A stretch of DNA of 64,000 bases from an uncultured Eubacteriales bacterium (GTDB lineage Bacteria > Bacillota > Clostridia > Christensenellales > CAG-314). The translations under genes were made by a program, and so were the position numbers. The DNA is taken from positions 81,655-145,654 of the forward strand of contig UQVY01000003.1 of the NCBI GenBank assembly GCA_900544545.1, given 5' to 3'. The first letter of the stretch is position 1. Each line of letters begins with the position of its first letter. The notes beneath the pieces were generated by a model that saw only the letters and a list, made by a program, of their open reading frames with translations, was not told the origin of the DNA and did not search any database. Shown one piece after another: positions 6,172 to 51,249 of the stretch.

Positions 6172-6972
6172 ATGGGATGGTTGCAGAGAAGAAAGGAGAA
6201 GAAAAAGAAGGCTCCGGATTATAAGTTCTTTTACTGGTTCGCGAAGGGCGTGCTCTGGCTTCCGTTGCGGCTTTTTTTCCGTACGAAGGTCTACGGCTGC
6301 CGGAAAATAGGCAAGCGCAAGGTCATCGTCGTTATGAACCACAAGTCCGCGATGGATCCGCTGCTTATGTCGCATTTCATCAGTCCGTCGATGAGTTTTA
6401 TAGCCAAGGAGGATCTTGCGAAGAACAAATTCGTTGAGCTTGTCCTTCGTCATCTTAACGTTATTTTCGTGCGGAGAGGCGAAGCCGATATGGGCGCGCT
6501 CGATCAGTCCTTCGACGTTCTCGAGAGCGGGAGGCCGCTCGCGCTTTTTCCCGAAGGCACGAGAAACAGGCAGAACGACGGTACGGTCAGACGCTTCAAG
6601 ACCGGGACGGCGTTTTTCGCTCTGGGAGCGCACGCTCCGATAATTCCCGTGGCCGTGGAGAAGTGCGCAAAAGCTGGCGTCAAGAACAGAATGATAATCG
6701 GTCCCGAATTCGATCTTTCGGAGTTTTACGACGACGAAAAGCAGCCGTCGAGGGACGCTCTTAAAAAGGCGACCGAGAAGATATACAGGCGGGTTACCGA
6801 GCTTAACGATATCTTTGCCGAATGCAAGGACGACGCGAGCGTGAAGAAGGCTCTTTCCGAGCTTGAAAAGAACCGTCCGGAAAGAGAAAGACGCCTCGAC
6901 GAACTCAGGGAAAAGCAGACTCTCGAGGTTCTCGAAGCGGCTATGAGGGAACTCGGCGAAAAGAAGGATTAA
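6172..6972 (+). CDS. plsC: 1-acyl-sn-glycerol-3-phosphate acyltransferase
   Basis: NHKSAMD (HX4D) and FPEGTRN acyltransferase motifs. I prefer the ATG at 6172 over the TTG at 6163 used by the ORF track. Confidence 0.85.
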   Translation: MGWLQRRKEKKKKAPDYKFFYWFAKGVLWLPLRLFFRTKVYGCRKIGKRKVIVVMNHKSAMDPLLMSHFISPSMSFIAKEDLAKNKFVELVLRHLNVIFVRRGEADMGALDQSFDVLESGRPLALFPEGTRNRQNDGTVRRFKTGTAFFALGAHAPIIPVAVEKCAKAGVKNRMIIGPEFDLSEFYDDEKQPSRDALKKATEKIYRRVTELNDIFAECKDDASVKKALSELEKNRPERERRLDELREKQTLEVLEAAMRELGEKKD

Positions 6973-7008
6973 GCGAAAAAAGGTAAAAGCGAAGGGCGGA
7001 TTAAGCGT

Positions 7009-9003
7009 ATGAAGGTCTATACTTACAGAAATAACGGTTTCTGCAACGGCGTTACGAGAGCCGTGGAGACCGCTCTCAATACCGAAGGCGACCGCATTTT
7101 TACCTACGGGCAGATCGTCCATAACAAGCACGTCGTCCGTATGCTCGAAGAAAAGGGCGTGGGCTGCGTAAACGACCTTTCCTCTCTCCGCGAAGGAGAC
7201 ACTCTCATAATCCGCGCTCACGGCGCGCCCGAACGGATTTTTGCCGAATGCAGGGAAAGAGGGATAAAGGTCGTCGATGCGACGTGCAGATACGTCCGTG
7301 CGATTCAGGAAAAGGCAGTGGATTATTACAGGCGCGGATATAAGATAGTCATCGTCGGGGACAAAAATCATCCGGAAGTCGTCGGAATCAACGGTTGGAT
7401 AAACGACGACGGATTATTAACCGACGGTGAAAGTTATGTGAAGGTTGAGAGTGAAAAAGCGTTGATTTTATTTCAAACGACCTTTATGGAGTCAAAAATC
7501 CAAAAAAGTTTGAAAAATATTGATACTAATAGCGTGAAATCGCTTGAGATTTTTAATTCAATTTGCTATACTACCAAAGATAGGCAAAGTTTTATCGATT
7601 TCGCAGTGCGCGTCAGCGATTGCGTCGTAGTCGTAGGCGACAGAGGGAGTTCCAATACCGGGAAGCTTTTGGAACTTGCAAGGAGCCGAGGCAAGGACGC
7701 GCTGCTTATAGAGGATCCTGACGAGATGGATACGGGTTTGCTTGTCGGCTATGAAAATATCAGTATAATTGCAGGTGCCTCAACTCCAAAAGAGTTAGGC
7801 GAGGAGGTTTTGTCTAAGATGTTCGTAAACGCAAAAGACGATGTGAATGAAGTTGTCGTTGACAACGAGGTAATGGATGCTGTTGAGAATAATGCAGCGG
7901 AGCAAACAAACGAAGGTAACGAGTTTACTCAGGCGGTCGAAAAGATTCCCACCAAGTATAAGCCTTTAAGGGCAGGTCAGAGAATCAAATGCACTGTTTC
8001 TCATATCGCCGAAGACGGCGTAAGCGTATCCTTCGGATCCAAGCGCGACGGTTTTATTCCCAACGACGAGATCGCTTCGGAAGGCGATATCGAAGAAATC
8101 AAGAAAGGAATGCAGATAGGCGATAGTCTCGAGGTCGTTGTTTTGTCTACGGATAAGAACGTCATTCTGTCTAAAAAACAGGTAGACGAAATCAATAAGT
8201 ATGACGCCATGATCGACGCCATCGAAGGCGGGGCGGAATTTTCCGCGACCGTCAACAAAGTCGTCAAGGGCGGTTTGCTTTCCAAGATCGGCAGCTACAT
8301 AGTATTCATTCCCGCTTCCCACATCAGAAACGGCTACGTCAAGAATCTCGACGCTTATAACGGAAAGACGCTTCGTCTGACTGCTCTTACCGTAGATAAG
8401 TCCAAGAAGAAGATAGTAGCGAGCCAGAAGGATATCCTTATCCGCGAGAAGCAGGAAAAGGAAGACAATTTCTGGAACAATATCGAAGTAGGCGAGATCG
8501 TCGAAGGAAAGGTTATGCGCTTTGCGTCCTTCGGCGCGTTCGTTAACGTAAGAGGCTTTGACTGTCTTGCGCACCTTTCCGACCTTTCGTGGAACAACAT
8601 AAAAGAGCCTGGCGAAGTTCTCGAGATCGGTAAGACCTACGAATTCGTGGTTCTGAAGCTCGACAGAGCGGCCAACAGAGTATCCGTCGGATATAAGCAG
8701 CTTCAGCCTCATCCGTGGCAGGTAGCCGCAGAGAAATTCGCTGTCGGTACCGTTCATCAGGGTAAGGTTGCGAGACTCGTTCCTTACGGAGCTTTCATCG
8801 AACTCGACAAGGGTATCGACGGTCTTCTTCATATCAGCAACGTATCGTGGGATTGGATTTCCGATATATCTCAGGTTCTTAAAGTCGGCGACGTCATCGA
8901 CGTACAGGTTATGGATTTCGACGGAGAGAACAAGCGTATCACGCTCTCGAGAAAGGCTACGATCGAACAGCCCACAATTGCGGTTGAAGAAGTGCGCAAA
9001 TAA
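7009..9003 (+). CDS. ispH: bifunctional 4-hydroxy-3-methylbut-2-enyl diphosphate reductase (IspH/LytB) / ribosomal protein S1 repeats
   Basis: The N-terminal half (GFCNGVTRAV, HNKHVV, GDKNHPEV) is IspH. The C-terminal half carries four S1 RNA-binding repeats (e.g. GKVMRFASFGAFV, GKVARLVPYGAFI). This fusion is well known in Clostridia. Confidence 0.9.
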   Translation: MKVYTYRNNGFCNGVTRAVETALNTEGDRIFTYGQIVHNKHVVRMLEEKGVGCVNDLSSLREGDTLIIRAHGAPERIFAECRERGIKVVDATCRYVRAIQEKAVDYYRRGYKIVIVGDKNHPEVVGINGWINDDGLLTDGESYVKVESEKALILFQTTFMESKIQKSLKNIDTNSVKSLEIFNSICYTTKDRQSFIDFAVRVSDCVVVVGDRGSSNTGKLLELARSRGKDALLIEDPDEMDTGLLVGYENISIIAGASTPKELGEEVLSKMFVNAKDDVNEVVVDNEVMDAVENNAAEQTNEGNEFTQAVEKIPTKYKPLRAGQRIKCTVSHIAEDGVSVSFGSKRDGFIPNDEIASEGDIEEIKKGMQIGDSLEVVVLSTDKNVILSKKQVDEINKYDAMIDAIEGGAEFSATVNKVVKGGLLSKIGSYIVFIPASHIRNGYVKNLDAYNGKTLRLTALTVDKSKKKIVASQKDILIREKQEKEDNFWNNIEVGEIVEGKVMRFASFGAFVNVRGFDCLAHLSDLSWNNIKEPGEVLEIGKTYEFVVLKLDRAANRVSVGYKQLQPHPWQVAAEKFAVGTVHQGKVARLVPYGAFIELDKGIDGLLHISNVSWDWISDISQVLKVGDVIDVQVMDFDGENKRITLSRKATIEQPTIAVEEVRK

Positions 9004-9021
9004 TATTTTTAAGGAAAACTG

Positions 9022-9050
9022 CCCGACGCAAAAAAGCGTCGGGTTTTTTT
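9022..9050 (+). terminator. intrinsic terminator after ispH/rpsA
   Basis: CCCGACGC AAAAAA GCGTCGGG followed by T7. Confidence 0.8.
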
Positions 9051-9115
9051 ATGTCTTTGCATAACCTCGGTGGACGGTAAGTATAATGTATAAGCAAATC
9101 TATCGAGGTGCAGAT

Positions 9116-13952: not shown

Positions 13953-14042
13953 GCCGCCCGCGCCCGTAAAAAGTCCGTTCTCTCCGACCTCCGATTGCGG
14001 GAAAGTCCTCCGGTTCGATAAATCCGCTTTTAATTCCGCAAC

Positions 14043-14102
14043 AGTCCCATTTCCGCGCAGTTTTTCCGAAGTAGTCCCCTTTCTGCGCAGTTTTTCCGAA
14101 AG
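14043..14102. repeat. 2 x 30-bp tandem repeat downstream of murG
   Basis: AGTCCCATTTCCGCGCAGTTTTTCCGAAGT / AGTCCCCTTTCTGCGCAGTTTTTCCGAAAG, 26/30 identical by eye. Confidence 0.9.
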
Positions 14103-15174: not shown

Positions 15175-15189
15175 AGATTTTCCTCGTTT

Positions 15190-15323
15190 TTGCAATAAAT
15201 TGACGTTTTTTTGCAATAATCCGACATTCTTTTTGTAACAATCGGACGTTCTCTTTGTAACAATTTGACATTTTTTTGCAACAATCCGACATTCTTTTTT
15301 TCAATAATCCGACATTCTTCTTT
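15190..15323. repeat. six ~22-bp tandem direct repeats in the murG / serine hydrolase divergent intergenic region
   Basis: The units are TTGCAATAAATTGACGTTTTT, TTGCAATAATCCGACATTCTTT, TTGTAACAATCGGACGTTCTCT, TTGTAACAATTTGACATTTTT, TTGCAACAATCCGACATTCTTTTTT and TCAATAATCCGACATTCTTCTTT. Confidence 0.9.
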
Positions 15324-17598: not shown

Positions 17599-19005
17599 TC
17601 AGGGTGATATCAGTCTTTTAACGGTGAGAAGAAAGCTATCGATTTGTGTTTCGGTGGTGTCTATCCCGGGTGAAACGCGGACTGCTCCGGAGAGTGAAGT
17701 TCCGAGTCTTTCGTGCATAAGGGGCGCGCAGTGAAGACCTCCGCGGACGACGAAGCCGTGGTCGTAAAGGCTTTGCGCGAAGACCGCGGAGTCGAAATCG
17801 GCGTCTGTCGTAACGAAGGTGACTATTGCGCCGGGGTTATCGCAGCTGAGGATTTTCACCTTCGGATAAAGGTCATAAAGCCCGTTATAGAGGCGTTTTC
17901 CGATATAATCGAGATTTCCTCGGATCTCCTCTTCGTACTTTTCGAGCCAATCGAGAGCGGCGAGGGCGGCGTTTATTGCGGGGAGGTTGTGCGTGCCTGC
18001 CTCGTAGCGTTCCGGCGGGAAGTCCGGCATATCTTTATCCGCGGAAAGCGTCCCCGTCCCCCCGTAAACGAGCGGCTCCATCTCTATCCCCTCCCTCACA
18101 ATCATCGCCCCGATACCGGAAAGGGCGTGGAGGGACTTATGGAAGGGGAAGGCGGCAATGTCGATATTGGAGAGGTCAACGTTCATTATTCCGACGGACT
18201 GCGCGCAATCGACAATCGAATAAATTCCGCGGCTCCTCAAAAGTTTTGTGATAGCCGCTATGTCGTCGATTCCGCCGGTTACGTTGCTCATATGCGAAAT
18301 TACCACTATTTTTACGTCGGGCGTCAGGTACGGCGCAAGCGTTTCCGGAGTTACCCGTCCGAACTCGTCGGTAGGCACTACGCCGTAGGAAAAACCGTTG
18401 CCTGCGGCTTCGTAAGGCGGCTTCGGGGCGGCGTTGTTTCCTGTTTTTTGGTTTGAAGTTCTGGCTGTCGAACGGGCGGTCGGAGTTACCCGTCCGAACT
18501 CGTCGGTCGGCACTACGCCGTAGGAAAAACCGTTGTCTGCGGCTTCGTAAGGCGGCTTCGGGGCGGCGTTGTTTCCTGTTTTTTTGTTCGAAGTTTTTGT
18601 TGCCGAACGGGCGGTCGGAGTTATGCGTCCGAATTCGTCGGCGGCGTTGATTGCGCAGGGGAAACGCCTTTTCGCGAGGGCGTAGACGGGGCGAAGGACG
18701 GCGTTGTGCGCGGCTTGCGTCACGAGAATCCGGCAGGGAGGCAGGCGGGCGGCAAGTCCGAGTATCGCCTGATTCAGAGCGAAGGTGCAGCCCGGGGTCA
18801 GTACTACGAAATGATCGCGGGCGTTCGTGAGCTTCAGAAGCTTTTCGCGAAGAGCGGAGAGTTTTTCGGCGGTGGCGTCGAATCCCGCGGAACGACCGAC
18901 GGACAGAGCGGAAATCGTCGCGGCTTTTATTACTTCGGGAGGCTTGAAGAGAGTGGTCGCGGCGTTATTCAGGTATATCATAACTATTTTAAGCTCCTTT
19001 TTCAT
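17599..19005 (-). CDS. class V aminotransferase / cysteine desulfurase-like protein carrying a 2 x 45-aa tandem insertion
   Basis: IYLNNAATT N-terminus, PLP-lysine context FPFHKSLHALSGIG, and a group II cysteine-desulfurase-like RGGLHCAP motif. The start is 19005 or 18981; the ORF track's 160-aa upstream extension runs through repeat spacer and is not coding. Confidence 0.8.
   Translation of the reverse strand: MKKELKIVMIYLNNAATTLFKPPEVIKAATISALSVGRSAGFDATAEKLSALREKLLKLTNARDHFVVLTPGCTFALNQAILGLAARLPPCRILVTQAAHNAVLRPVYALAKRRFPCAINAADEFGRITPTARSATKTSNKKTGNNAAPKPPYEAADNGFSYGVVPTDEFGRVTPTARSTARTSNQKTGNNAAPKPPYEAAGNGFSYGVVPTDEFGRVTPETLAPYLTPDVKIVVISHMSNVTGGIDDIAAITKLLRSRGIYSIVDCAQSVGIMNVDLSNIDIAAFPFHKSLHALSGIGAMIVREGIEMEPLVYGGTGTLSADKDMPDFPPERYEAGTHNLPAINAALAALDWLEKYEEEIRGNLDYIGKRLYNGLYDLYPKVKILSCDNPGAIVTFVTTDADFDSAVFAQSLYDHGFVVRGGLHCAPLMHERLGTSLSGAVRVSPGIDTTETQIDSFLLTVKRLISP
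18346..18640. repeat. 2.2 x 135-bp tandem repeat inside the aminotransferase CDS (in frame, 45 aa per unit)
   Basis: Units 18346-18480 and 18481-18615 differ at 8 of 135 positions by eye. A partial third copy, 18616-18640, is the native DEFGR.TP junction. Confidence 0.95.
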
Positions 19006-19119: not shown

Positions 19120-19383
19120 ATGCGGACGGAATACGCGGCGGCGGCTTTCAGATCGCCGGACGAGGCTATGAGAGCATTGAATATTTTGAGGGAAAACCGA
19201 ATCCGGGCGGAGCTTATAAATACTCCGTCGGCAGCGAGAGTGGGCTGCGGGATTTCGGTGAGAGTGGAGATGAACGAGGCGGAGAGAATGTTCGGGTTGG
19301 TTTCGGGAATGGGGACGTTTGCGGGGGTTTTTCGGGTTTATAACGTGAAAGGGAAGCCGGTCGTGGTGAGTTTCGGGAAGTGA
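19120..19383 (+). CDS. DUF3343-like small protein (putative S/Se carrier family)
   Basis: 87 aa (MRTEYAAAAFRSPDEAMRALNILRENRIRAELINTPSAARVGCGISVRV). This matches the DUF3343 pattern of a ferredoxin-like fold with a conserved Cys in a GCG context. GAGGAGGAG RBS. It is divergent from the cysteine desulfurase-like gene. Only the 3' part of listed ORF 18706..19383 is real. Confidence 0.65.
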   Translation: MRTEYAAAAFRSPDEAMRALNILRENRIRAELINTPSAARVGCGISVRVEMNEAERMFGLVSGMGTFAGVFRVYNVKGKPVVVSFGK

Positions 19384-19632
19384 AAGATTGTTGGGTTTTG
19401 CGGAATTACAGGAGGGTTTCGGGAATTTCGGGAGAAAGAGTTTTCGGGAGCGGAAGAATGTCGGATTTTTGAAAGAAAATGAAACCAATTGGCGGGAGTT
19501 TTCGGAAGGGAAGGGTTGTCGGAGGTTTCGAAAACGGAAGATTGTTGGATTTTTGGGAGAAATTCGGGAGAAAAGAGATAGGATTATCTGAGATTCGGGG
19601 AGAATATGAGAGCCGATTCGGGAGGAAAGGGG
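19366..19632 (+). repeat. degenerate stutter of the DUF3343 gene end (TTTCGGGAAG, = SFGK) repeated about 10 times
   Basis: Variants include GTTTCGGGAAGTGA (gene end), GGTTTCGGGAATTTCGGGAGA, GTTTTCGGGAGCGG, GTTTTCGGAAGGG, GGTTTCGAAAACGG, AATTCGGGAGAA, GATTCGGGGAGAA and GATTCGGGAGGAA. In addition, GAAGATTGTTGG(G/A)TTTT occurs at ~19384 and ~19538. Confidence 0.8.
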
Positions 19633-19764: not shown

Positions 19765-21201
19765 ATGTACGACGTAATCGTTGCAGGCGGCGGCGTTATC
19801 GGGACTTCGGTCCTCGCGGCGTTGTCGCATATTAAAATAAAAACCCTTCTCCTCGAAAAGGAAGAGGACGTTTCCTGCGGCTGCTCCAAAGCAAACAGCG
19901 GAATCGTTCACGCGGGGTACGACGCAGAGGAGGGAACACTCAAAGCCCGCTTCAACGTCAGAGGCGCGGAAATGTATCCCGAACTTTGCCGGAAATTTCA
20001 CGTCCCTTATAAGAATACCGGCTCGCTCGTGCTTGCGCCGAAGGACAGAATAAACGAACTCGAAAAACTCTATGAGAGAGGAATAAAAAACGGAGTATCG
20101 GGACTCGAAATCGTAGAGGGAGAAAGCCTTAAAAAGCTCGAACCGAATATCGCGGAGGGGATCGAATTCGGACTCTACGCGCCGACGGCGGGAATAGTTT
20201 CGCCCTACGGATTCACCATCGCGCAGGCGCAGCACGCAATAATCAACGGGGCTGAGATTCTGACAGAAAAGGAAATCGTTTCCGTTTCCGAAACCGAGGA
20301 AGGATTTTCCGTGGGAACGGCGGACGGCTCGGAATATAAATGCAGAGTGTTTATAAACTGCGCGGGATACGGCTCGAAGGAGATTTCGGATATGCTCGGA
20401 GAGGAGCTTCCGCCAGTTTCTTACAAGAGAGGGGATTATATCATTCTCGACAGGACAGAGCACGATAAGTTCAGGCATACCTGCTTCCCGCTCCCCGACG
20501 AAAACGGAAAGGGAATACTCGTTTCTCCAACGGCGGACGGAAACGTTATTCTCGGTCCGACGGGATTTTCCGTGGACAGCGGCACCGATACCGCGGTCGC
20601 GGAGGACGGCCTCGCGCTCATCAGAAGCTCCGTTCCGAAAATGATGAGGAACGTCGATTTCCGCAAGGGCATAAGAGTCTTCGCGGGGGTGAGATGCAGC
20701 AGCGGAAGGGATTTCGTCATAGGAAACGGAAAGAATCCCGATTATATCTACCTTCAGGGAATATGCTCGCCCGGACTTACGGCGGCACCCGCCATCGCGG
20801 AATACGTCGCGGAAGAGCTGCTCGGAAAGACTTCGCTCAAAGCCGAGAAAAAGGACGAGAGAGAGATTAAGTACCTCCCCGCAAGACCGATTACGAGAGA
20901 TCTTTCCGTAGCGGAATGGCAGGAGCTTGCGCGGAAGAATCCCGAATACGCGGTCATAGTCTGCAGATGCGAAAGAATAACCGAAGGGGAGATCCTCGAC
21001 GTTCTGAGAGAACCTCTTCCCCCGAAATCGGCGGACGCCCTCAAAAGAAGAGTGCGGACGAGTATGGGAAGATGTCAGGGAGGATTCTGTACGCCGAGAG
21101 TCATGGAAATATTGGCGGACTTTTACGGACTGCCGCCCGAGAGCGTTACCAAATGCGGCAAGGGAAGCGAAATAGTGACCGCCGACGTTATAGAGGATTG
21201 A
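19765..21201 (+). CDS. FAD-dependent oxidoreductase, GlpA/LhgO-like, with C-terminal BFD-like [2Fe-2S] domain
   Basis: DVIVAGGGVIGTS FAD motif and a C-terminal CRCERITEGEI...GRCQGGFC BFD-type cluster motif. Confidence 0.8.
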   Translation: MYDVIVAGGGVIGTSVLAALSHIKIKTLLLEKEEDVSCGCSKANSGIVHAGYDAEEGTLKARFNVRGAEMYPELCRKFHVPYKNTGSLVLAPKDRINELEKLYERGIKNGVSGLEIVEGESLKKLEPNIAEGIEFGLYAPTAGIVSPYGFTIAQAQHAIINGAEILTEKEIVSVSETEEGFSVGTADGSEYKCRVFINCAGYGSKEISDMLGEELPPVSYKRGDYIILDRTEHDKFRHTCFPLPDENGKGILVSPTADGNVILGPTGFSVDSGTDTAVAEDGLALIRSSVPKMMRNVDFRKGIRVFAGVRCSSGRDFVIGNGKNPDYIYLQGICSPGLTAAPAIAEYVAEELLGKTSLKAEKKDEREIKYLPARPITRDLSVAEWQELARKNPEYAVIVCRCERITEGEILDVLREPLPPKSADALKRRVRTSMGRCQGGFCTPRVMEILADFYGLPPESVTKCGKGSEIVTADVIED

Positions 21202-21426
21202 ACGGAGAGAACGGACGGTCGGAACGGAGAGTTGAAAAAAGCTCGGAACGGAGAGAGCGGAAGAAGATTCCCCTCCGAGAAAATCGAAACCGACGGACGG
21301 GAAAATCGCCGAGGGAAGAGAAATCGTAACTGCGGAGGGGAAGCTCGTTGGTGGAGCGGAATCGTAACCGAGGACGGAAAGCTCGCCGAGGGAAGCGAAA
21401 TCGTCGGAGCATAGAGATTCACGAGG
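21151..21426 (+). repeat. decayed tandem copies of the GlpA-like gene 3' end
   Basis: The gene end GGGAAGCGAAATAGTGACCGCCGA...ATAGAGGATTGA recurs as GGGAAGAGAAATCGTAACTGCGGA (21312-) and GGGAAGCGAAATCGTCGGAGCATAGAGATTCA (21390-). GAACGGAGAG appears 3 times just after the stop. Confidence 0.8.
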
Positions 21427-21468
21427 AAAGAAAACCGAGAAGGGTTACCGAAAATAAGGAGAAAAACA

Positions 21469-22713
21469 ATGAAGGAATACGACGTTGCCGTGATAGGAGG
21501 CGGTCCGGCGGGAATGGCGGCGGCTGCCGAAGCCGCGAAAAACGGAGCCGAAACGCTCGTCATAGAAAGGGACGGCAGACAGGGCGGAATCCTCAATCAG
21601 TGCATTCACAACGGATTCGGACTGCATTTGTTCGGAGAGGAGCTTACCGGTCCCGAATTCGCGCAGAGATTCATCGACGAGGTCGCCGCGAGCGGAGCGA
21701 AGGTTATGACGGGAGCCTTCGTCGTCGAAATAAGAGAGGACAAAACTCTCGTTACCGTAAGTCCTTCGGGCGGCGTTGAGGAAATAAAGGCGAAAGCCGT
21801 GGTTCTCGCTATGGGCGCGAGAGAAAGATCCGCGGGAGCCATTGGACTCACCGGAAGCAGACCGGACGGAATCTGGACGGCGGGACTGGCGCAAAGACTT
21901 TGCAACGTCGAAGGAATGCTCGTCGGAAAGAAGATAGTCATTCTCGGAAGCGGGGACATCGGACTTATTATGGCGAGAAGAATGACCTGCGAGGGCGCGG
22001 AGGTCAGAATGGTCTGCGAGATTATGCCTTACTCGGGCGGACTCAGGAGAAATATCGTTCAGTGCCTCGACGACTTCGGAATTCCGCTGCTGCTTTCGAC
22101 GACCGTTACGAGAGTAGTGGGCAAAAAGAGAGTGGAGGGAGTTTATATCGCCGACATAAAGGACGGTAAACCTCTGCCCGAGACCGAAAGATTCGTGGAA
22201 TGCGACACCTTGCTCCTTTCGGTGGGACTTATACCCGAGACCGACCTTCTTTCGGGCAGCGGAATCGAAACCGACCGCGCGACCGGAAGCTTTGTCGTCA
22301 ACGAATTCAGGGAAACCTCCCTCCCCGGGATTTTCGCCTGCGGAAACGTCCTCCATATCCACGACCTCGTGGACAACGTTGCGGACGAAGGATTCCGGGC
22401 GGGCAGAAGCGCGGCGGATTACGCTCTGCGCGGAAGAGAATCCGAGCCGAGAAATATACCCGTCAAGGCAGGAAAAGGAATAAAATACGTCCTTCCGCAG
22501 AGAATAGACGGTGAAAAGGGAAAGGCTACGATTTACTTCAGGACGGATAACGTTTACGCGCGTCCGACGATCACGGTGAGATGCGGAGAAAAGGTCGTTG
22601 CCGCGCAGAAAAAAGCGGTCACCGCTCCGGGAGAAATGCAGAGCGTTGCCGTGGACACGGCGAAAATCGACGGAGAGGTCGTGGTCGAAATTACGGCCGG
22701 AGAAAAGCGTTAA
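21469..22713 (+). CDS. NAD(P)/FAD-dependent pyridine nucleotide-disulfide-type oxidoreductase
   Basis: DVAVIGGGPAGMAAA plus a second Rossmann motif ILGSGDIGL. It is the usual partner of the GlpA-like and DUF1667 genes. Confidence 0.8.
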   Translation: MKEYDVAVIGGGPAGMAAAAEAAKNGAETLVIERDGRQGGILNQCIHNGFGLHLFGEELTGPEFAQRFIDEVAASGAKVMTGAFVVEIREDKTLVTVSPSGGVEEIKAKAVVLAMGARERSAGAIGLTGSRPDGIWTAGLAQRLCNVEGMLVGKKIVILGSGDIGLIMARRMTCEGAEVRMVCEIMPYSGGLRRNIVQCLDDFGIPLLLSTTVTRVVGKKRVEGVYIADIKDGKPLPETERFVECDTLLLSVGLIPETDLLSGSGIETDRATGSFVVNEFRETSLPGIFACGNVLHIHDLVDNVADEGFRAGRSAADYALRGRESEPRNIPVKAGKGIKYVLPQRIDGEKGKATIYFRTDNVYARPTITVRCGEKVVAAQKKAVTAPGEMQSVAVDTAKIDGEVVVEITAGEKR

Positions 22714-22842
22714 TCGACGGATTCCAGTTCCTGAAAAACACCGAAAGGTCGGAAGAACCGAGGGAGAAAAGCGTTGATCGACGGGTTCCAGTTCTTAAAA
22801 AACGTCGGGAAGGTCGAAATTACGGCGGAAGAAAAGAGTCGG
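22683..22842 (+). repeat. 2.5 x ~65-bp tandem repeat starting inside the 3' end of the second oxidoreductase gene
   Basis: Units start at 22683, 22747 and 22812 (GGTCGAAATTACGGCCGGAGAAAAGCGTTAATCGACGGATTCCAGTTCCTGAAAAAC... / GGTCGGAAGAACCGAGGGAGAAAAGCGTTGATCGACGGGTTCCAGTTCTTAAAAAAC... / GGTCGAAATTACGGCGGAAGAAAAGAG...). Confidence 0.9.
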
Positions 22843-22856
22843 ACAAAGGGAGAAAA

Positions 22857-23263: not shown

Positions 23264-25432
23264 ATGAACGAAAACCTCAGAGGAAACCGAATAAATATCC
23301 GTCCCGCCGCTTTATTTGCGGCGGCGGTCGTCTGCGGGACTTTATCGGCCTTTTCGGTATTCGTCCGCGAGATGGTTTTCGTCCCCTTAATCGTTGCCGC
23401 GGCTTTCGCCTCGGCTCTTTTTTTGTTCCGAAAAAGAAAAATGCGGAAGGCTTTCCTTCTATCGGCAATCGCGGCGGGGCTTTGTTTACTCGGATTTCTC
23501 GCTTTTTACGCAGAATATAAGACCTATTACGCCGAGGAGCCGAGTTTTACCGAAGCGACGGTCGTCCTTACCGCAAAGGGAAACGCAAGGTTCTCTTCGG
23601 GCTACGCGAGCGGAAGCTTTTACGGGGAGATAATCGAAAACGGAGAGAGAAAACCCCTCCCGAAAAACGTCAAAGCGGAGTTTTTCGTCGGAGAGGAGGA
23701 GGACTTATCGGAGGGAAGTTTTTTCGTCCTCAGAGGGACGCTCTATTCGATTTCGCCCTATTACGACGGGAGAACGGACGCTTCGCTTATATCGGAGGGA
23801 GTGGGCTTCGGATTCAGAGTGAAAGAGGTCGTTTCGGTCGGGAAAAACCTTCCGGATTTTGCGGGAAGATTCAGGAATTACGTCCGCGAAACCCTCGGGG
23901 AAAACGCTTCGCCTCGGAGCGCGGGAGTCATAAGAGCGATGATTCTCGGCGAAAAAGAGGGACTTTCCTCCGAAAGAAGGAACGATTACCGCGTAACCGG
24001 ACTCGCGCATCTCTTTTCGGTCAGCGGACTTCACGTGGGATTCCTTGCGGTTATATGCGACTTCGTAGGAAGAAGGATTTTCCGCAGAAAAAGAATCGTC
24101 GGGAAAATCGTCGGGATTATTATACTCTGGGCGTACGTCGGGATATGCGGATTCCCTTCCTCGGCGGTAAGGGCTGCCGTTATGGCGACGACGGTCATTA
24201 TTCTCCGTCCCAAAAGAAGGGCAGACGCGGTTTCTTCGCTCTGCACGGCGGCTGCCGTTCTCTTTCTTATAAGCCCTTCGTCGCTCTTTTCGGGAGGCTG
24301 TCTTATGAGCTTCTCGGCGGTTTCGGGAATAATCTCGTTCTCGTCGCTCTTTTCGGAGCTTTTCAGGAAAAAAGTCGGAAATAAACGCCTGAAAAGAGTT
24401 CTTACGGCTTTTTGCGTATCGCTCGGAGCAAGCGTCGGAACCTTTCCGTTCGTCTGGAGCTACTACGGGGAAATCTCGCTACTTTCGCTCCCCGTGAATA
24501 TGCTCGCGGTCGCGGCTATGACGGCGGTATTCGTGCTTTCGGCGGTGTTTCTGATTCCGCCTTTTACAAAGCTTCTCGCCCTTCCTTCGGCACTCGCGGC
24601 TGCGGTGGATTCGGCGGTTTCGGCGGCTGCCGAGTCGGGAGCAGTGAGTTTACCCGCGCTTTCGACGGATATTGCGGTTTTTATAGGATTTGCGGCGATT
24701 CTTACGCTTGTCGGAGGGAAAATAAGACTTTCACGCAAAATAAAAGCCGCGGCTTTGTCGCTCTGCGCGGCGACGGTCGTGATTTCGTCCTTCCTGTTCC
24801 CCGCAATCCCGAACGAAACGGCGTTTTTCCGCAGAAGAGGAGTTTCCTTTATGACGGGCAGGGGCGGAGAGGTCTTCGTTTTTTCGGACATCAAGAGCGA
24901 GTACGACGTTTATACGCTCGAAAACGCACTCAAACGGGCGCGGAACGGGAAAATACATATCCTCGTCGATTCGTTTCCGCTTTCGGTTTCGGAGGAGGGA
25001 CTCAGAAAACTCAGGGAAAGACTGCCGACGGCGGATTTCGTTTCGGGCGATAAAAGAGAAACCGACGGCAGACTGCTATGCGAGAGGGCGGGATTTTCCG
25101 TGGCAGAGGAATATTCGGGAGAGGGAGTTTTCGTTGCGGCGACGGAGATAAACGGGAGAAAATGCTTCCTTATCCAAACGGAGGGCAGGAGATTTGTCTT
25201 TATAAGGGACGCGAAAAATACGGATTTTTCGGAACCGGACGGGAATTTCGGAAGGATAGATTTTGTTTACGCGAAAAGAATATCCGGGGAGAACGCGGAC
25301 TTCGGGGGAGTGGTATTCACAGATTCGACCGTGAGAAGGGGAAATTGTTTTTCGTCCGCATTCGATATTGACTTTACTTTTTATCCGTCGCGTGGTATAA
25401 TCAAAGGACGGAAAGGTTTCGTTTATCCGTAG
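23264..25432 (+). CDS. comEC: ComEC/Rec2 family DNA internalisation channel protein (C-terminal domain lacks metallo-beta-lactamase motifs)
   Basis: Polytopic membrane protein with the competence-domain signature GLAHLFSVSGLHVGF. The start is at MNENLRGN (23264). I saw no HxHxDH in the C-terminal ~240 aa. Confidence 0.75.
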   Translation: MNENLRGNRINIRPAALFAAAVVCGTLSAFSVFVREMVFVPLIVAAAFASALFLFRKRKMRKAFLLSAIAAGLCLLGFLAFYAEYKTYYAEEPSFTEATVVLTAKGNARFSSGYASGSFYGEIIENGERKPLPKNVKAEFFVGEEEDLSEGSFFVLRGTLYSISPYYDGRTDASLISEGVGFGFRVKEVVSVGKNLPDFAGRFRNYVRETLGENASPRSAGVIRAMILGEKEGLSSERRNDYRVTGLAHLFSVSGLHVGFLAVICDFVGRRIFRRKRIVGKIVGIIILWAYVGICGFPSSAVRAAVMATTVIILRPKRRADAVSSLCTAAAVLFLISPSSLFSGGCLMSFSAVSGIISFSSLFSELFRKKVGNKRLKRVLTAFCVSLGASVGTFPFVWSYYGEISLLSLPVNMLAVAAMTAVFVLSAVFLIPPFTKLLALPSALAAAVDSAVSAAAESGAVSLPALSTDIAVFIGFAAILTLVGGKIRLSRKIKAAALSLCAATVVISSFLFPAIPNETAFFRRRGVSFMTGRGGEVFVFSDIKSEYDVYTLENALKRARNGKIHILVDSFPLSVSEEGLRKLRERLPTADFVSGDKRETDGRLLCERAGFSVAEEYSGEGVFVAATEINGRKCFLIQTEGRRFVFIRDAKNTDFSEPDGNFGRIDFVYAKRISGENADFGGVVFTDSTVRRGNCFSSAFDIDFTFYPSRGIIKGRKGFVYP

Positions 25433-34155: not shown

Positions 34156-34242
34156 CCGAAAATGAGAAATCGCGGAAACTAACAGAAACGAAAAGTCAAA
34201 ACTAATCGAAACGAGAAATCGTAAAGATTAAACGAAACGAAA
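34133..34242 (+). repeat. four purine-rich 23-27-nt units each ending in (A/T)(C/T)TAA, the first being the MazG-like gene end
   Basis: The units are ...ACGAGAAATCAAGACTAA, CCGAAAATGAGAAATCGCGGAAACTAA, CAGAAACGAAAAGTCAAAACTAA and TCGAAACGAGAAATCGTAAAGATTAA. Confidence 0.8.
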
Positions 34243-34243
34243 A

Positions 34244-34270
34244 AGCCGCAGGAATCCCGCGGCTTTTTTT
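34244..34270. terminator. bidirectional intrinsic terminator between the MazG-like gene (+) and hpt (-)
   Basis: AGCCGCAGG aat CCCGCGGCT with A5 on the left and T7 on the right. Confidence 0.75.
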
Positions 34271-34289: not shown

Positions 34290-34360
34290 TTACTCTTCGT
34301 CTCTTTTTTCGCTCTGTCTGTGGAATTTACTCTTCGTCGCTTTTTTCGCTCTGTCTGTAA
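34290..34360 (-). repeat. duplication of the last 34 nt of hpt (stop included), 37-bp period
   Basis: 34327-34360 and 34290-34323 are identical at 31/34 positions by eye (TTACTCTTCGTC(G/T)CTTTTTTCGCTCTGTCTGT). Confidence 0.95.
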
Positions 34361-34881
34361 ACTCCGATGTCCACTAAATTACGGTATTTTTCGTCAAGAT
34401 CGAGTCCGTATCCGATGATGAATTCGTTGGGAATCTCGAAACCCAGATAATCGATAGGTATATGAATGCGTCTCCGCGCGGGCTTGGAGAGAAGGGTACA
34501 GATCCTTACCGATTCCGCGCCTCTCGTTCTGAGCATTCTCATTATGTAGTCTAGAGATACGCCCGAATCCACGATGTCTTCGACGATGATTATGTTCCTT
34601 CCGGCTACCGAAGTGTCGAGATCCTTGAGAAGCCTTACTTCGCCGCTCGTCTTAGTTCTCGCGCCGTAGGAAGAAATCGCCATAAATTCTATGTTTACGT
34701 CGATGTCGATGGCTCTTACGAGATCGGCAAAAAACATTACCGCTCCCTTCAGAATGCAGATAAGCAGCGGCGTGGATTTATAACGGTAATCGTCGGAAAT
34801 CTCTTTGCCCAATTCCGTCACTCTTTTGTCGATCTCTTCCTTGGAAATCAGTATGCGTTCCATATCCTTGTGTGTCTTCAT
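34327..34881 (-). CDS. hpt: hypoxanthine phosphoribosyltransferase
   Basis: PRPP-binding motif IIIVEDIVDSGVSL. 4-nt overlap with tilS upstream, which is the conserved tilS-hpt pair. Confidence 0.9.
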   Translation of the reverse strand: MKTHKDMERILISKEEIDKRVTELGKEISDDYRYKSTPLLICILKGAVMFFADLVRAIDIDVNIEFMAISSYGARTKTSGEVRLLKDLDTSVAGRNIIIVEDIVDSGVSLDYIMRMLRTRGAESVRICTLLSKPARRRIHIPIDYLGFEIPNEFIIGYGLDLDEKYRNLVDIGVYRQSEKSDEE

Positions 34882-36359
34882 TTGTCAGCCCTCCGTGGTT
34901 TAGTGGAAATGTAATAGGTTTTTTCGTCTTTACGAGTTATTCTCAGATCTTCGCTTATTTCCGTACCGCAGACGACCAGCACGGCTTTTTCCGAGCAGAT
35001 AAGCGGAAGCCCGTTTCTTTTTTCGGCGGGAATCTTCCTTTCGATAAGAAAATCCTTGAGCTTTTTGGTCCTTCCTCCGAATTTGCGGAAAGAATCCCCT
35101 TCCTTTCTCGTCCTTATAACGCAATCGGGCGGAAGTTTTTCCGCACTCACCCGAAGAGTCCGGAAACCGCCTTCGGATCCGACGAAGCTTTCTCCGAGAG
35201 TCAGGACGTAATCCCCGAAATCCGCGCTCCCGTTTTCGATAAGAAGCGAGATCGGAAGCTCCGAAAGGTCGGATTTATCCTCGGGAACGGACGGACGGAC
35301 GAAAAGAAAACCGAAACTTACCGAGGCGTAGGCTCCGTTATGGAGAAAAAGCCGCTTTCCGCTCGTGTTCTCCGCAAGAGAACAAATCGCTTCCACGTGC
35401 CTCTCCCCGGCGTCGACTATCGAACCGACGAGAGCCAGCATTCTTCGGATAACGCGGACCTTTATCGCAGGATGAAGAGCGTTCAGAGCCTCGGTTTCGG
35501 CTTTTACCGCAAGAGCGGGTTTTTCGTCCGAATAGTATTCGTCGGTGAAATCGCCGGAATCGATTCTTTCGCCGAGGGAATCGTCGGAATAGATTCTTTC
35601 GCCCGAGTAGCTTGTTTCGTGGGGGACGGTCGGTTTTTCACCCGAAGAAGAGCCGAGAGGAACGAAACCTTCTCCGTAATCGGCAAAAAGAGGAAAACGA
35701 GAGGCCTCGCGCTTCAGATAGTCAGAGTCCGCGGAAGTCCTTTGCGCAAGAGCGCAGATCGCGCGGGAGGCTCCTCCGTAGCATTCGTTGAGAATCGGCA
35801 TTACGTTCAGACGGACGAAATTCCTCTTGTAGCTCGCGTCGAAATTCGTGGCGTCCAGAACGAACTCTATTCCGTTCCTTTCGGCGTAACTCAGAATCTC
35901 GGTCTTGGTCAAACCTAAAAGCGGCCGGAAAACTCCCTCCGAAAAGACCTTCATTCCGTTGAGTCCGTCCGTTCCGCAGCCGCGAAGAAGGTGCATAAGC
36001 ACCGTTTCCGCCTGATCGTCGGCGTGATGAGCAAGACAGATTATCCGTCCGTTCGCGTGCTTCCTTATGGCTTCGCGTCGTAAAATACGCGCGGCGGTTT
36101 CTACGCTCAAGCCCTTTACGGCAGCAAAAAACGGAACGTCCACGCTTTCGATTACACAGGAAATACCGTACTTACGGCATATTCTCCGTGTGAATTCCGC
36201 GTCGTCCGCTCCTTCTTTGCGGATATTGTGATTGACGGTGACGGCTTCTATGCGGTAACGATTCTCCTTCGCAAGAAGGTCGAGCATTACCATACTGTCC
36301 GCGCCGCCGCTCAATGCGAGCAAAAGCTCCGCGCCCTCGGGCAGTTTCGGAATATTCAT
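34878..36359 (-). CDS. tilS: tRNA(Ile)-lysidine synthetase
   Basis: PP-loop LLALSGGADSMVMLDLL and the C-terminal TilS domain (RTRKEGDSFRKFG). It contains a 2 x 30-bp in-frame duplication in its linker. Confidence 0.9.
   Translation of the reverse strand: MNIPKLPEGAELLLALSGGADSMVMLDLLAKENRYRIEAVTVNHNIRKEGADDAEFTRRICRKYGISCVIESVDVPFFAAVKGLSVETAARILRREAIRKHANGRIICLAHHADDQAETVLMHLLRGCGTDGLNGMKVFSEGVFRPLLGLTKTEILSYAERNGIEFVLDATNFDASYKRNFVRLNVMPILNECYGGASRAICALAQRTSADSDYLKREASRFPLFADYGEGFVPLGSSSGEKPTVPHETSYSGERIYSDDSLGERIDSGDFTDEYYSDEKPALAVKAETEALNALHPAIKVRVIRRMLALVGSIVDAGERHVEAICSLAENTSGKRLFLHNGAYASVSFGFLFVRPSVPEDKSDLSELPISLLIENGSADFGDYVLTLGESFVGSEGGFRTLRVSAEKLPPDCVIRTRKEGDSFRKFGGRTKKLKDFLIERKIPAEKRNGLPLICSEKAVLVVCGTEISEDLRITRKDEKTYYISTKPRRADK
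35555..35614. repeat. 2 x 30-bp in-frame tandem duplication within tilS
   Basis: CGGAATCGATTCTTTCGCCGAGGGAATCGT / CGGAATAGATTCTTTCGCCCGAGTAGCTTG. This encodes SGERIYSDDS / LGERIDSGDF in the TilS inter-domain linker. Confidence 0.85.
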
Positions 36360-39795: not shown

Positions 39796-40476
39796 ATGAG
39801 AAAAATAGCAATGTTCGTCGACGTTGATAACCTCGGACTTTCCGGAAGACAGTTCAAAGAGATATTCGACGACGTCAATTCCGCAGGAAAAATCGTCTAC
39901 GGTAAAATATACGGAGTTATAGACAGAAAACATAAAGAAATAATCGACCTTATCGTCAACCGCGGTTACGATATGGCTCCGCCGATGAGAGTAAAAAAGC
40001 GCGGAAGCAAGGTTTTCGACAACAGAATCCTTATAGACGTTATGGAAACAGTCGTCGCCAACGAGAAAATCGACACTATTGCGGTCGCCTGCGCACCCGC
40101 AGACCTCGTTCCGCTCTTCTCAAAACTCAGAGAGTACGGCGTCAGCATTATGTCGCTCGATAACCTCGATAAGGAAAGTTCGTTCTTCGTGGACGACGTT
40201 ATACTCGGGGAATGCGACGAGGACGATGAGGACGACTCCATAGAAGAGCTTGCGGCGGGATTCGCGGAAAAAACCTCGGGCGCGGATAAACCTTCCGCAA
40301 CGCAGGAACCGGAAATTTCCGCAGAGGACGAAAATTCCGCGGAAGAAGAAAACGAGGAAGCTCCCGAAGAAGAGGACGCGGACGAGGATTTCGAGGACAA
40401 CGAAGCATTCCTCGAGAGAGTAAAGAACGTCTTCTCGGGACTCAGCCCCGACGACATCGAAGAGGAAGAGGAATAA
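39796..40476 (+). CDS. NYN/LabA-like domain protein with poly-acidic C-terminal tail
   Basis: IAMFVDVDNL...GKIYG...IAVACAPADLVPL pattern of the LabA-like NYN fold. The last ~90 aa are dominated by D/E. GGAGG lies 5 nt before the ATG at 39796. Confidence 0.6.
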   Translation: MRKIAMFVDVDNLGLSGRQFKEIFDDVNSAGKIVYGKIYGVIDRKHKEIIDLIVNRGYDMAPPMRVKKRGSKVFDNRILIDVMETVVANEKIDTIAVACAPADLVPLFSKLREYGVSIMSLDNLDKESSFFVDDVILGECDEDDEDDSIEELAAGFAEKTSGADKPSATQEPEISAEDENSAEEENEEAPEEEDADEDFEDNEAFLERVKNVFSGLSPDDIEEEEE

Positions 40477-40726
40477 AACCCGAACCGAGGAAAACGGAAT
40501 CCGAATGAAAGGAATAAACCGAGAGGAATACAAACCCGACGGAAAAGACGAAATCCGAACGAGGGAAACCGATTTCTCGTAGAGAAACGAAAGCCGAAGA
40601 GGGAAAATCGGCCGAAAAAGACGAAACTATAAGTATTAAATCGGGCGAAGGTCCGTTTTTAATAAAGCGTACTTAATTTACGTGCGGCTGCCGAGCAGCC
40701 GACAAAACAGGAGGTATAGCAGGTAA

Positions 40727-42762: not shown

Positions 42763-43310
42763 GTAAGACATATGAAATGATAGCCGCAGGCTTCGGCGGA
42801 CAGGGCGTTCTGGCTCTCGGTCAGATTGTCGCTTATTCCGCTATGTATAACGACAAAAACACCACCTGGCTCCCGAGTTACGGTCCCGAAATGAGAGGAG
42901 GTACGGCTAACTGTTCGGTAGTCGTTTCCGACGCCCCCGTAGCCAACCCGATGATAACCCACCCCAACGTTCTCGTCGCTATGAACAGGCCCTCCGTGGA
43001 CAAGTTCATCGACAACGTCGTTCCCGGCGGATACGTATTCATCAACAGCTCTCTTATCGACGTTAAGGTCGAAAGAACCGACCTTCACGTTTATTACGTT
43101 CCCACCATCGAACTCGCTACCGAAAACGGAAACCCCAAAGGCTCCAACGTCGTTATGCTCGGCGCGGTCGTAGAGGCTACCGGTATCGTGGACGACGACA
43201 AGGCTATCGAAGGCGTGGAGTATTTCTTCTCCAAGAAGCCTCAGCTTATCGAACCCAACAAGAAGATGTTCGCGGTAGGATGCGATTTCATCAGAAACCT
43301 CAATAAATAA
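42759..43310 (+). CDS. 2-oxoacid:ferredoxin oxidoreductase gamma subunit
   Basis: AGFGGQGVLALGQ...YGPEMRGGTANC motif of the gamma subunit. ATGA coupling to the beta subunit gene. Confidence 0.85.
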   Translation: MSKTYEMIAAGFGGQGVLALGQIVAYSAMYNDKNTTWLPSYGPEMRGGTANCSVVVSDAPVANPMITHPNVLVAMNRPSVDKFIDNVVPGGYVFINSSLIDVKVERTDLHVYYVPTIELATENGNPKGSNVVMLGAVVEATGIVDDDKAIEGVEYFFSKKPQLIEPNKKMFAVGCDFIRNLNK

Positions 43311-43547
43311 GAAGCTTCGTTCCCGAAACGAGAAACCTCGGATAAGAAGATTTATTCTCGAAACGAGAAGATTCGAACGGGAAGCTTTATTAGAATAAGT
43401 AAATTTCCGCTTTTACGCGGATAGCCCTTACGGGCATAACGAGATCTTCCGAGGAAGCCGGTCACTTCTTCGGAAAGCTCCGTCGTCGCCTGTCCTTCAG
43501 TCGGGATAATCCGCGGCGTCGGGGACAAAACAAAAGAATTGCTTGAA

Positions 43548-43580: not shown

Positions 43581-43695
43581 CCGAAAAAGTCCGAAAGGAT
43601 ATTGCTGAAAATCGAAAGGATATTGCTGAAAATCCGAGAGATATTACTAAAAATCGAAAGGACGGGACAAAAAATCGGAAAGACTTGACAAATTT
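43581..43695 (+). repeat. five 21-22-bp tandem direct repeats ending in the htpG -35 box
   Basis: The units are CCGAAAGGATATTGCTGAAAAT, CGAAAGGATATTGCTGAAAAT, CCGAGAGATATTACTAAAAAT, CGAAAGGACGGGACAAAAAAT and CGGAAAGACTTGACAAATTT. Confidence 0.9.
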
Positions 43696-49511: not shown

Positions 49512-51107
49512 ATGTTTTTCAACGTGATGCTCAGTGCAGGTCAGGTTTCGGTCTGGCTGGCCGTGGTTATCGGTATAGTGGGCATCGGTGTAGGTGTGGG
49601 CGTTTTGTATTTCGTGGAGAAATACGTCTTCACGAAAAGAGTCGAGGAAGCTAAAAAACGCGCAGATTCTATTATTGGTGTCGCTGAAGAAGAAGCGAGA
49701 AAAAGAAAAAAAGAGAAAATCATCGAAACTAAGGAAGAGGTGGAACAGCTCAAGCTCAACTTCGAGCTGGAGAGTAAGGAAAGGTCGAAGGAGCTTTCCA
49801 AAAAGGAGGACCGCCTCGTAGGAAGAGAAGCTACTCTCGATAAGAAAGAGGACGTTCTTACGAGAAAACAGGAGCAACTCGAACAGCAACAGAAAACTCT
49901 TCAGAATCAGCAAGCCGAGCTTCAGCGGAAGCAGGCGGAAATGGAGAAATTCAACGAAAAGCTCAATTCCGAGCTTGAAAGAGTTTCGCAGATGACAAAA
50001 GAGGAAGCGAAAGCCTCTCTCGTCGAAACGATTGTGTCCGACGCGAGAAAGGAAGCCGCGGTCATCGTCCGCGAAATCGAAAACGAAGCCAAGGAAAACG
50101 GCGAGAAACGAGCGAGAGAAATCATCGGCAGCGCGATCCAGAGATGCGCGGCGGATCAGGTTTCCGAAGCGACCATAACGACAATTCCGCTTCCCAACGA
50201 CGATATGAAGGGAAGACTCATAGGCCGCGAAGGAAGAAATATCAGAGCTATCGAAAACGCCACGGGAGTAGACCTTATCATCGACGATACGCCCGAAGTC
50301 GTCATTCTTTCGGGATTCGACCCCGTAAGAAGACAGATCGCGAGAATCACCGTCGAAAGACTTATTACCGACGGAAGAATCCACCCCGCAAGAATCGAAG
50401 AGATGGCGGAGAAGGTCAGAAAGGAGATGGACGTTACCATAAAGGAAGCCGGCGAAGCAGCCTCCTTCGATACGGGCGTCTTCGGACTTCATCCCGAAAT
50501 AATCAAGCTTCTCGGACGGCTTAAATTCAGGACGAGTTACGGACAGAACGTCCTCAATCACTCCCTCGAGGTTTCCTATATAGCCGGAATGATGGCGGCG
50601 GAACTCGGAGTGGACGTTATGCTCGCGAAAAGAGCGGGACTTCTCCACGATATAGGCAAAGCCGTGGATCAGGAGGTCGAAGGCACGCACGTTCAGATAG
50701 GAGCGGACCTCGCCAAAAAGTACCGCGAAAGCAAAGAGGTCGTCAACGCTATTATGGCGCACCACGGCGACGTCGATCCTATGACGGTGGAAGCCGTTCT
50801 CGTTGCGGCGGCGGACGCGGTTTCGGGCGCAAGACCGGGCGCAAGACGCGAGACTATCGAGAATTACGTCAAGCGGCTCGAAAAGCTCGAGGAGATCGCG
50901 AGCGACTTCAACGGAGTCCAGAAGGTTTACGCTCTTCAGGCGGGCAGAGAGGTCAGAGTTATCGTAAAGCCCGAGGTAGTAAACGACCCGACTATGGTCC
51001 TTCTCGCAAAAGACATCGCCAAGAAGATCGAAAGCGAAATGGAATATCCCGGACAGATAAAGGTCAACGTTATCAGGGAAACGAGAAGCGTCGAATACGC
51101 GAAATAA
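49512..51107 (+). CDS. rny: ribonuclease Y
   Basis: N-terminal TM helix, coiled-coil, KH domain ([13 protein letters not shown]) and HD domain (LLHDIGKA...HHGD). GGAGGAAAAAAT precedes the ATG at 49512. Confidence 0.9.
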
Positions 51108-51174
51108 AGCCGGGAAACGAAATATCGGTCGGATATCGCAAATCGCGGAAAAGACCTGTAAAAACGAATATAAA

Positions 51175-51208
51175 GCCTGCGGAGAGCCAAAAATCCGCGG
51201 GCTTTTTT
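51175..51208 (+). terminator. intrinsic terminator after rny
   Basis: GCCTGCGGA gagccaaaaa TCCGCGGGC followed by T6. Confidence 0.75.
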
Positions 51209-51249
51209 CAAAAAAGAAAAAATCAGGGCGTAAATAAACCTATATACGA

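Follow-up and report, generated by a model that had tools for sequence, protein, structure and literature searches.

Tandem arrays in gene-end spacers of an uncultured gut Clostridia species are lineage-specific and best explained as a variant of bacterial minisatellites

A stretch of 64,000 nucleotides (nt) from an uncultured Eubacteriales bacterium (contig UQVY01000003.1 of assembly GCA_900544545.1, positions 81,655 to 145,654), hereafter the window, carries among its genes SipL, an ispH-rpsA fusion, RNase Y, ComEC and HolA, which together mark a Clostridia-type genome. In the spacers downstream of several of its genes lie direct copies of the gene's own 3' end, including the stop codon or a mutated form of it, and these tandem arrays are the subject of the present study. 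The original prediction had listed nine such genes and had considered slippage or template switching, a record of repeated stop-codon shifts, or a selected RNA platform as their origin. We found that the core observation, copies of gene ends in spacers, is real but overstated in extent. The arrays are probably locus-specific neutral minisatellites, produced by ordinary short tandem duplication and deletion together with selection, and not by a mechanism that targets gene ends. Contigs identical or more than 99% identical to the window occur in many human-gut metagenome assemblies, Hadza samples included, and in NCBI metagenome-assembled genomes; assemblies GCA_052288275.1, GCA_964315305.1 and GCA_900768155.1 carry the same species. 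Contigs of individual strains and relatives are referred to below by L numbers.

The gene map was built from open reading frames (ORFs) by codon-usage scoring and a Pfam check, with starts corrected by gene calls on near-identical contigs. For the tail test, the last 60 nt of each gene were compared with the downstream spacer, and the best Smith-Waterman match was scored against dinucleotide shuffles. A multi-hit statistic was used beside the best single match to score multi-copy tail patterns, and locus by locus the last 75 nt of each gene were aligned with its own spacer. Tandem arrays were called with Tandem Repeats Finder (TRF) and a repeat search across the window. Among the nine loci, tail copies stood out strongly for the second oxidoreductase, hpt, comEC and GlpA-like genes (z 4-20 against shuffles). 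For the DUF3343, OFOR gamma and MazG-like genes they were supported by the multi-copy statistic only (p ≤ 0.03), and for plsC (p 0.07-0.3) and rny (p 0.06-0.4) the result was non-significant.

The second oxidoreductase gene (Pyr_redox_2, 21469-22713) runs into a plus-strand array at 22683..22845, made of 2.4 copies of a 64-65 nt unit (repeat family D7). The first unit consists of the last 31 nt of the gene with its TAA stop, followed by the next 33 nt, and the tail matched the spacer with a z of about 10. At hpt, encoded on the minus strand at 34327-34881, we observed a minus-strand duplication at 34290..34363 whose 37-nt unit covers the last 32 nt of the gene with its TAA stop. The two copies matched at 31/32 bases in the aligned core (z about 18-20) and were identical (32/32) in L094 and L098. 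The GlpA-like gene (DAO/Fer2_BFD) was found to end in a plus-strand array at 21154..21440 (family D16), which comprises the last ~48 nt of the gene and then 3-4 diverged copies, at 21303-21336, 21355-21376 and 21389-21420, within a 267-nt spacer. Its 60-nt tail gave a z of about 5. Between the repeat units of this spacer L088 has a 78-nt deletion, and the spacer carries an 8-nt insertion in L091.

The comEC array (25403..25552, plus strand) holds 5-6 copies of about 24 nt, with a tail z of 4.3-4.8 and a multi-hit z of 5.3. Its first copy codes for the C-terminus and the TAG stop, and its last copy ends in TAA beside the holA ribosome-binding site. The 3' end of comEC contains, at 25385-25393, an extended -10 motif, TGGTATAAT, which is kept in L086, a relative at 67% identity (about 14176-14184). 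This motif is likely the holA promoter; the comEC array would therefore fall in the holA 5' leader.

Three arrays were detected through their multiple copies. The MazG-like array (34136..34244, plus strand; about 4 copies of ~24 nt, AAACGAGAAATCAAGACTAA; TRF period 49 x 2.2) begins 20 nt before the stop of its gene (33727-34155, 142 aa) and ends at a bidirectional terminator at 34240-34268. Its best single match was non-significant, with a multi-hit p of 0.005-0.03. In Pfam the gene itself matched DUF1465 alone, weakly and below threshold, and not MazG; it is predicted as 126 aa instead of 142 aa in some strains. In the loop of the terminator, at 34253, strains L094, L102 and L103 carry an insertion of ~1.2 kb with a TnpV-like gene. 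The OFOR gamma gene (42759-43310) is followed by about 3 copies of ~35 nt on the plus strand (43293..43405, from 18 nt before the stop; TRF 43309-43391, period 35 x 2.4; family D15). This tail gave p 0.012-0.035 and a multi-hit z of 4.4, and the array was invariant among the compared strains. Between it and a terminator at 43545-43574 lies ~150 nt of non-repetitive, GC-rich-looking sequence (43400-43545). Rfam did not match it, and it could represent a leader element or a small RNA. The DUF3343 (Se_S_carrier) gene, at about 19120-19383, precedes degenerate ~37-nt copies of its end at 19368..19632 on the plus strand. These form family D9 (4 copies, 68-73% identity), are G/T/A-rich with the common word GTTTCGGGAA, and reached a multi-hit p ≤ 0.005 with a non-significant best single match.

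Direct reading of the sequence added a tail-derived case beyond the nine. On the plus strand at 40468..40560, the end of an NYN gene, GAGGAATAAAACCCGA..., is repeated at 40521, with TAA changed to TAC. The Smith-Waterman test alone was non-significant for this tail, and a 34-nt deletion in it is polymorphic (L103, L109, L111 and L113). The two loci that failed the test remain candidates on the plus strand. At plsC (6956..7007) there are possibly 3 copies of a 16-17 nt unit (GCGAAAAGAAGGATTAA), seen by eye across the stop codon and filling the 36-nt spacer, invariant in 10 strains. At rny (51076..51182) there is a possible single degenerate tail copy, also invariant among strains, with a z of 3.7 at light gap costs and the p of 0.06-0.4 in the shuffle test. 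A small minus-strand ORF at 49178-49342 (z 8-10) was discarded as a gene-tail case: its region replaces a VWA gene, and the ORF had no Pfam match. Between pepF and rny, a VWA-domain gene of 425 aa is present in most strains; its place is taken in the window (48999-49349) and in L111 by ~350 nt of unrelated sequence that contains internal repeats.

About as many arrays bear no relation to a gene tail. A plus-strand array of a 21-22 nt unit (43584..43692, family D4) immediately precedes the htpG -35 box (TTGACA at 43685). Its spacer-length alleles differ in 21-22 nt steps, the shortest being ~35 nt below and the longest 66 nt above the length in the window (about 2-7 copies), and its copy number could modulate htpG transcription. 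The spacer between FtsX and the MazG-like gene (33545..33709, plus strand) holds arrays of 22- and 24-nt units that do not derive from the upstream tail (z about 1), with strain indels of 57, 24, 15 and 7 nt. The murG 5' leader on the minus strand contains 6 copies of a 22-nt unit (15187..15323), with a 44-nt insertion in L122, and the murG-to-addB spacer 2.3 copies of a 30-nt unit (14034..14101, minus strand), of which four strains lack 30 nt, whereas L117 carries 24 nt inserted. Further non-tail arrays lie at 37560 and 59901.

Arrays also occur inside genes, and the in-frame duplications noted originally were confirmed, one with corrected bounds. In the minus-strand Aminotran_5 gene (17599-18981), a 135-nt (45-aa) unit is repeated 2.7 times at 18346..18707; L001 and L088 have 3.7 copies and L091 has 4.7, and the array is absent from the L086 orthologue (366 aa). 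It is inserted in a loop of the pyridoxal phosphate (PLP) enzyme, each unit opening with the native motif DEFGRVTP, after which come 37 novel low-complexity residues. In tilS, also on the minus strand, 30 nt (10 codons) are present twice at 35538..35597, a duplication first placed at 35555. In the strain-variable arrays within genes the unit length is divisible by 3 (135 and 30 nt), which an 18-nt array at 40312 fits too, and spacer arrays have units of arbitrary lengths.

To follow the arrays among strains, we compared four contig sets over window positions 1-56750, at a coding divergence of 0.3-0.8% (about 0.5%). Indels of at least 4 nt were found at 17 loci, and 14 of the 17 fell within the 4% of the sequence that consists of tandem arrays (p = 2e-17). 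Of the remaining three, one was due to a mobile element, one to the presence or absence of a gene and one to a divergent promoter haplotype. The steps mostly equalled the local repeat period (64, 78, 37, 34, 30, 36 and 135 nt, and multiples of 22 nt), and a few were smaller (7-15 nt). Copy number varied at the oxidoreductase tail, the GlpA spacer, hpt, the NYN tail, upstream of htpG, at 33545, 14034, 15187 and 37560, and in Aminotran_5 and tilS, the steps at 14055, 15205, 33588 and 37575 being among these. Exactly one unit was lost, with intact flanks, at the oxidoreductase in L088 (64 nt), at hpt in L103 (37 nt, leaving no duplication) and at tilS in L098 (30 nt). Wherever an indel involved a gene tail, as in L088, the stop codon was retained. 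Such gain and loss between near-identical strains, mostly in steps of the repeat period, supports the slippage or template-switch origin that had been put forward as one option. Two candidates were set aside. A 19-nt 'insertion' of L088 at 15388 proved to be a scaffold gap of Ns, and indels at 2983 and 3000, outside any array, reflected the divergence of two haplotypes in the surE promoter region. In that spacer (2900-3030), strains otherwise ~99.5% identical carry two strongly divergent haplotypes.

A comparison with related genomes had been proposed as a check, and we carried it out at orthologous loci. A protein search returned relatives at 77% (P0002) and 67% identity (P0003), on contigs L085 and L086, the latter fully syntenic. 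The same genes were present there with tight or overlapping junctions, and the arrays were absent. Between DAO (the GlpA-like gene) and Pyr_redox the window has 267 nt, where L085 has 12 nt and the two genes of L086 overlap by 4 nt; the junction from comEC to holA is 12 nt in L086, is not covered by L085, and reaches 129 nt in the window. From Pyr_redox to DUF1667 the distance is 79 nt in L086, 48 nt in L085 and 144 nt in the window, the only one of the three with an array. TRF detected no array in the 21 kb of syntenic sequence of L086. The edges of each expanded spacer still align with the relatives' compact junction. The arrays are therefore insertions that occurred in this lineage. As to the idea that the copies record repeated stop-codon shifts, the C-terminus of comEC lies in another frame here than in L086, and such shifts are at most a side effect.

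The purine richness attributed to these spacers was borne out, with 60-78% purines on the sense strand of array-bearing spacers against 54% in coding sequence. The same spacers are T-poor, down to 9-10%, and hence stop-poor; gene callers therefore give the next gene a false N-terminal extension. Four extensions that had been suspected of being false are so, the true starts being 25562, 22857 or 22869, 23264 and 18981. Within a 90%-identity cluster of oxidoreductases, many variants that were at least 99% identical had predicted N-termini differing in length, frame and stop content, and public predictions ranged from 414 to 507 aa. Since these N-termini differ in frame between strains, the extensions are not coding; the variation also pointed to indels in the GlpA spacer. 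Annotation is thus misled about the start of the gene that follows an array. The false extensions of longest-ORF starts also hide the arrays themselves in automated gene calling: 3/26 tails exceeded z 4 with automated starts, as against 5/29 with curated ones.

We then asked how far gene ends are favored. As a control set we used 73 other Clostridia loci with 545 gene tails, obtained through an oxidoreductase protein scan of a genome collection; they were at most 58% identical, mostly from unrelated Clostridia, and unusable as orthologous loci. Tail-to-spacer matches with z>4 were found for 5 of the 29 genes here and for 6 of the 545 control tails (Fisher p = 9e-5). Swapped controls gave 0/29 and 1/28, and coding interior 3/118. 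TRF arrays numbered 2.66 per 10 kb in the window and 0.76 per 10 kb in the pooled controls.

A possibility was that these figures reflected a mutational process aimed at gene ends, for instance template switching or slippage set off where the ribosome or RNA polymerase terminates, by way of replication-transcription conflict or of R-loops at 3' ends, so that duplications would begin preferentially at stop codons. Eight to ten arrays do start in the last 18-50 nt of a gene, stop codon included. Tail matches stand 7-fold above coding interior and about 15-fold above control genomes, and arrays lie between stop codon and terminator, in transcribed 3' untranslated regions. We nevertheless regard such a process as unlikely. 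Arrays unrelated to any gene tail are about as numerous and occur in 5' leaders, in promoter-proximal DNA and in other parts of spacers, and in-frame arrays sit in the middle of genes. Matches of gene heads to their upstream spacers concerned 3 of 28 genes, and tails and heads did not differ significantly (p = 0.7). At least one of the three head matches came from a wrong start call, namely that of murG, which was rejected once its true start had been placed at 15174 from gene calls on near-identical contigs. The junctions that bear tail-derived arrays measure 0-80 nt in the relatives, with no other source sequence at hand, and a selective filter alone predicts the pattern. A special targeting of gene ends was thus not sustained and is not needed. 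Nor did the copies decay with distance from the gene, as had been claimed: at comEC, GlpA, the oxidoreductase, MazG and DUF3343 the most distal copy matched the tail about as well as the nearest one did, or better. It is likewise doubtful that an unusual and possibly targeted or adaptive duplication regime operates here, in which stop-spanning duplications routinely make new intergenic DNA within operons and the purine-rich arrays, through their variable copy number, tune translation of the following gene or, as at the htpG promoter, transcription. Were it true, the arrays would be a genome-wide set of contingency spacers.

That the arrays are selected RNA or regulatory elements appeared improbable. 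They might act as unstructured, purine-rich, Shine-Dalgarno-like platforms (standby sites, or sites for RNA-binding proteins) or as spacers tunable by copy number. Such roles would fit their purine-rich and T-poor mRNA sense strand with many GGA and GGAG words, the replacement of translational coupling at operon junctions, and the position of the htpG array, which abuts a -35 box and varies from about 2 to 7 copies among strains like phase-variable promoters. Nucleotide diversity, however, was 0.017 in tail-derived arrays and 0.019 in other arrays, as compared with 0.012 at 4-fold degenerate sites and 0.004 in the remaining spacer, although the excess over the 4-fold value may come partly from alignment ambiguity in repeats. 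The arrays are thus the least constrained sequence of the window, with substitution at or above the neutral rate and 4-fold above other spacer DNA. RNA folding of three array spacers was no better than that of shuffles (z -1.35, -1.21 and +0.77), and Rfam matched only three tRNAs, both at gathering thresholds and at E ≤ 0.05, and no array. The window-wide repeat search found no motif or repeat family common to different loci, and its hits were confined to local arrays, matches to promoter-like consensus sequences and acidic low-complexity repeats in coding sequence. The arrays are missing from the relatives' orthologous junctions, and loss of a unit leaves the flanking genes unchanged. All this speaks against the selected RNA platform among the options first listed.

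Scars of integrative mobile elements, which target gene 3' ends and duplicate their attachment (att) sites, were considered very improbable. The TnpV-like insertion does lie between the MazG-like gene and hpt, and yet it sits in the terminator loop, away from the boundary of the hpt duplication, whose copies are adjacent. Among strains the element and the duplication are independent, L094 having both, L103 the element only and most strains the duplication only, and this largely refutes the mobile-element reading. The remaining arrays consist of more than two copies, joined head to tail without an element in between. Finally, it is hardly credible that the similarity arose by chance in purine-rich DNA of low complexity, or through an artefact of assembly: plsC and rny were non-significant, and DUF3343 and MazG rest on short words in biased sequence, but four loci reached z 4-20 against dinucleotide shuffles and against other genes' tails, strain indels were clean and unit-precise, and the same array sequences recurred in independent assemblies from different samples, produced by SPAdes, MEGAHIT-style and Logan pipelines.

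We therefore come back to locus-specific neutral minisatellites as the probable explanation. The spacers would be made of units of about 17-135 nt that arose in this species, each from a short tandem duplication, most likely by replication slippage or microhomology-mediated tandem duplication. Units would later expand and contract by slippage or unequal recombination between them, and decay by point mutation. Duplication itself would not be aimed at gene ends; selection would set which events survive. A duplication wholly within non-essential spacer would be harmless. One running from the last codons past the stop would leave a first copy that ends the protein at the original stop and a second copy that becomes non-coding, and such stop-spanning duplications would persist because the protein stays intact. 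Within genes, only in-frame duplications in tolerant loops would survive. Since many ancestral junctions were very short or overlapping, duplications surviving there had to use the tail of the upstream gene, and the arrays would in this way inherit and amplify its purine-rich, Shine-Dalgarno-like composition. The rate of duplication appears to be raised in this lineage.

Several observations weigh against this explanation. The older arrays (comEC, MazG, OFOR gamma, plsC and rny) showed no unit-size change among the sampled strains. Inspection by hand revealed no clear flanking microhomology at the junctions of hpt, the youngest event, or of the oxidoreductase, where substitutions have blurred the boundaries. 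Inheritance from gene tails may explain the purine-rich, low-T bias only partly, and to this is added the alignment ambiguity mentioned above for the diversity values. Two of the 73 control loci had an equal or higher TRF density. Tails exceed heads (5 vs at most 3, p = 0.7), the direction expected of a targeted process. The sample is limited to 64 kb of one species.

Among known systems, the mycobacterial interspersed repetitive units (MIRU) are tandem units of 40-100 nt that lie between operon genes, near stop and start codons, in variable copy number. The arrays share with them the position at operon junctions and the variable copy number. MIRU, however, form one dispersed sequence family present at many loci, whereas here each locus has its own local unit. 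As a matter of fact, the tails of other genes did not match a given spacer, which argues against any dispersed repeat family, be it MIRU, repetitive extragenic palindromes and bacterial interspersed mosaic elements (REP/BIME), or miniature inverted-repeat transposable elements (MITE). Clustered regularly interspaced short palindromic repeats (CRISPR) do not fit either, as the copies abut or are separated by degenerate copies and the repeats are diverged; att-site duplication does not fit the hpt copies, which are adjacent with no element between.

RecA-independent slipped-strand duplication between short direct repeats likewise involves tens of bases and is revertible. Microhomology-mediated tandem duplications (MTD) are frequent, reversible and filtered by selection, at frequencies far lower in E. 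coli than in yeasts (PMC8639346). The likeness to MTD lies in tandem duplication of tens of bases, exact reversion by loss of a unit, tolerance near 3' ends and in intergenic DNA, and survivors filtered by frame and essentiality. The differences are that flanking microhomology is not clear here, the boundaries being blurred, and that so many fixed events are unusual for a bacterium. According to a survey (PMC12418385), prokaryotic intergenic DNA is in general enriched in tandem repeats, which are commoner downstream of stops and upstream of starts than within genes; so far as read, the survey does not describe repeats that start inside a gene and copy its stop, or spacers made from tails. In the literature we found no prior description of stop-codon-spanning tandem duplications in bacteria.

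The closest likeness is with bacterial minisatellites, or variable-number tandem repeats (VNTRs), used for typing in multiple-locus VNTR analysis (MLVA). Their units, about 10-135 nt long and arranged head to tail, lie mostly in intergenic DNA or in frame within genes, differ in copy number among close strains by unit-sized steps and require no function. The arrays correspond to this description, with head-to-tail units of 17-135 nt, against a lower limit of about 9 nt for the class, and unit-step differences in copy number between strains. They depart from it in their density, which is about 3.5-fold the control value and high for a bacterium, in that about half of them were seeded from the last codons and stop of the upstream gene, and in that operon junctions once tight or overlapping have been widened to 130-270 nt. 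The signature, real and lineage-specific, is thus best explained as a variant of bacterial VNTRs and not as a new mechanism. The arrays are ready-made strain-typing markers for a widespread, uncultured human-gut Clostridia species. They also provide a concrete route from coding to non-coding DNA, along which overlapping or 12-nt junctions became spacers of 130-270 nt built from the last codons of genes.

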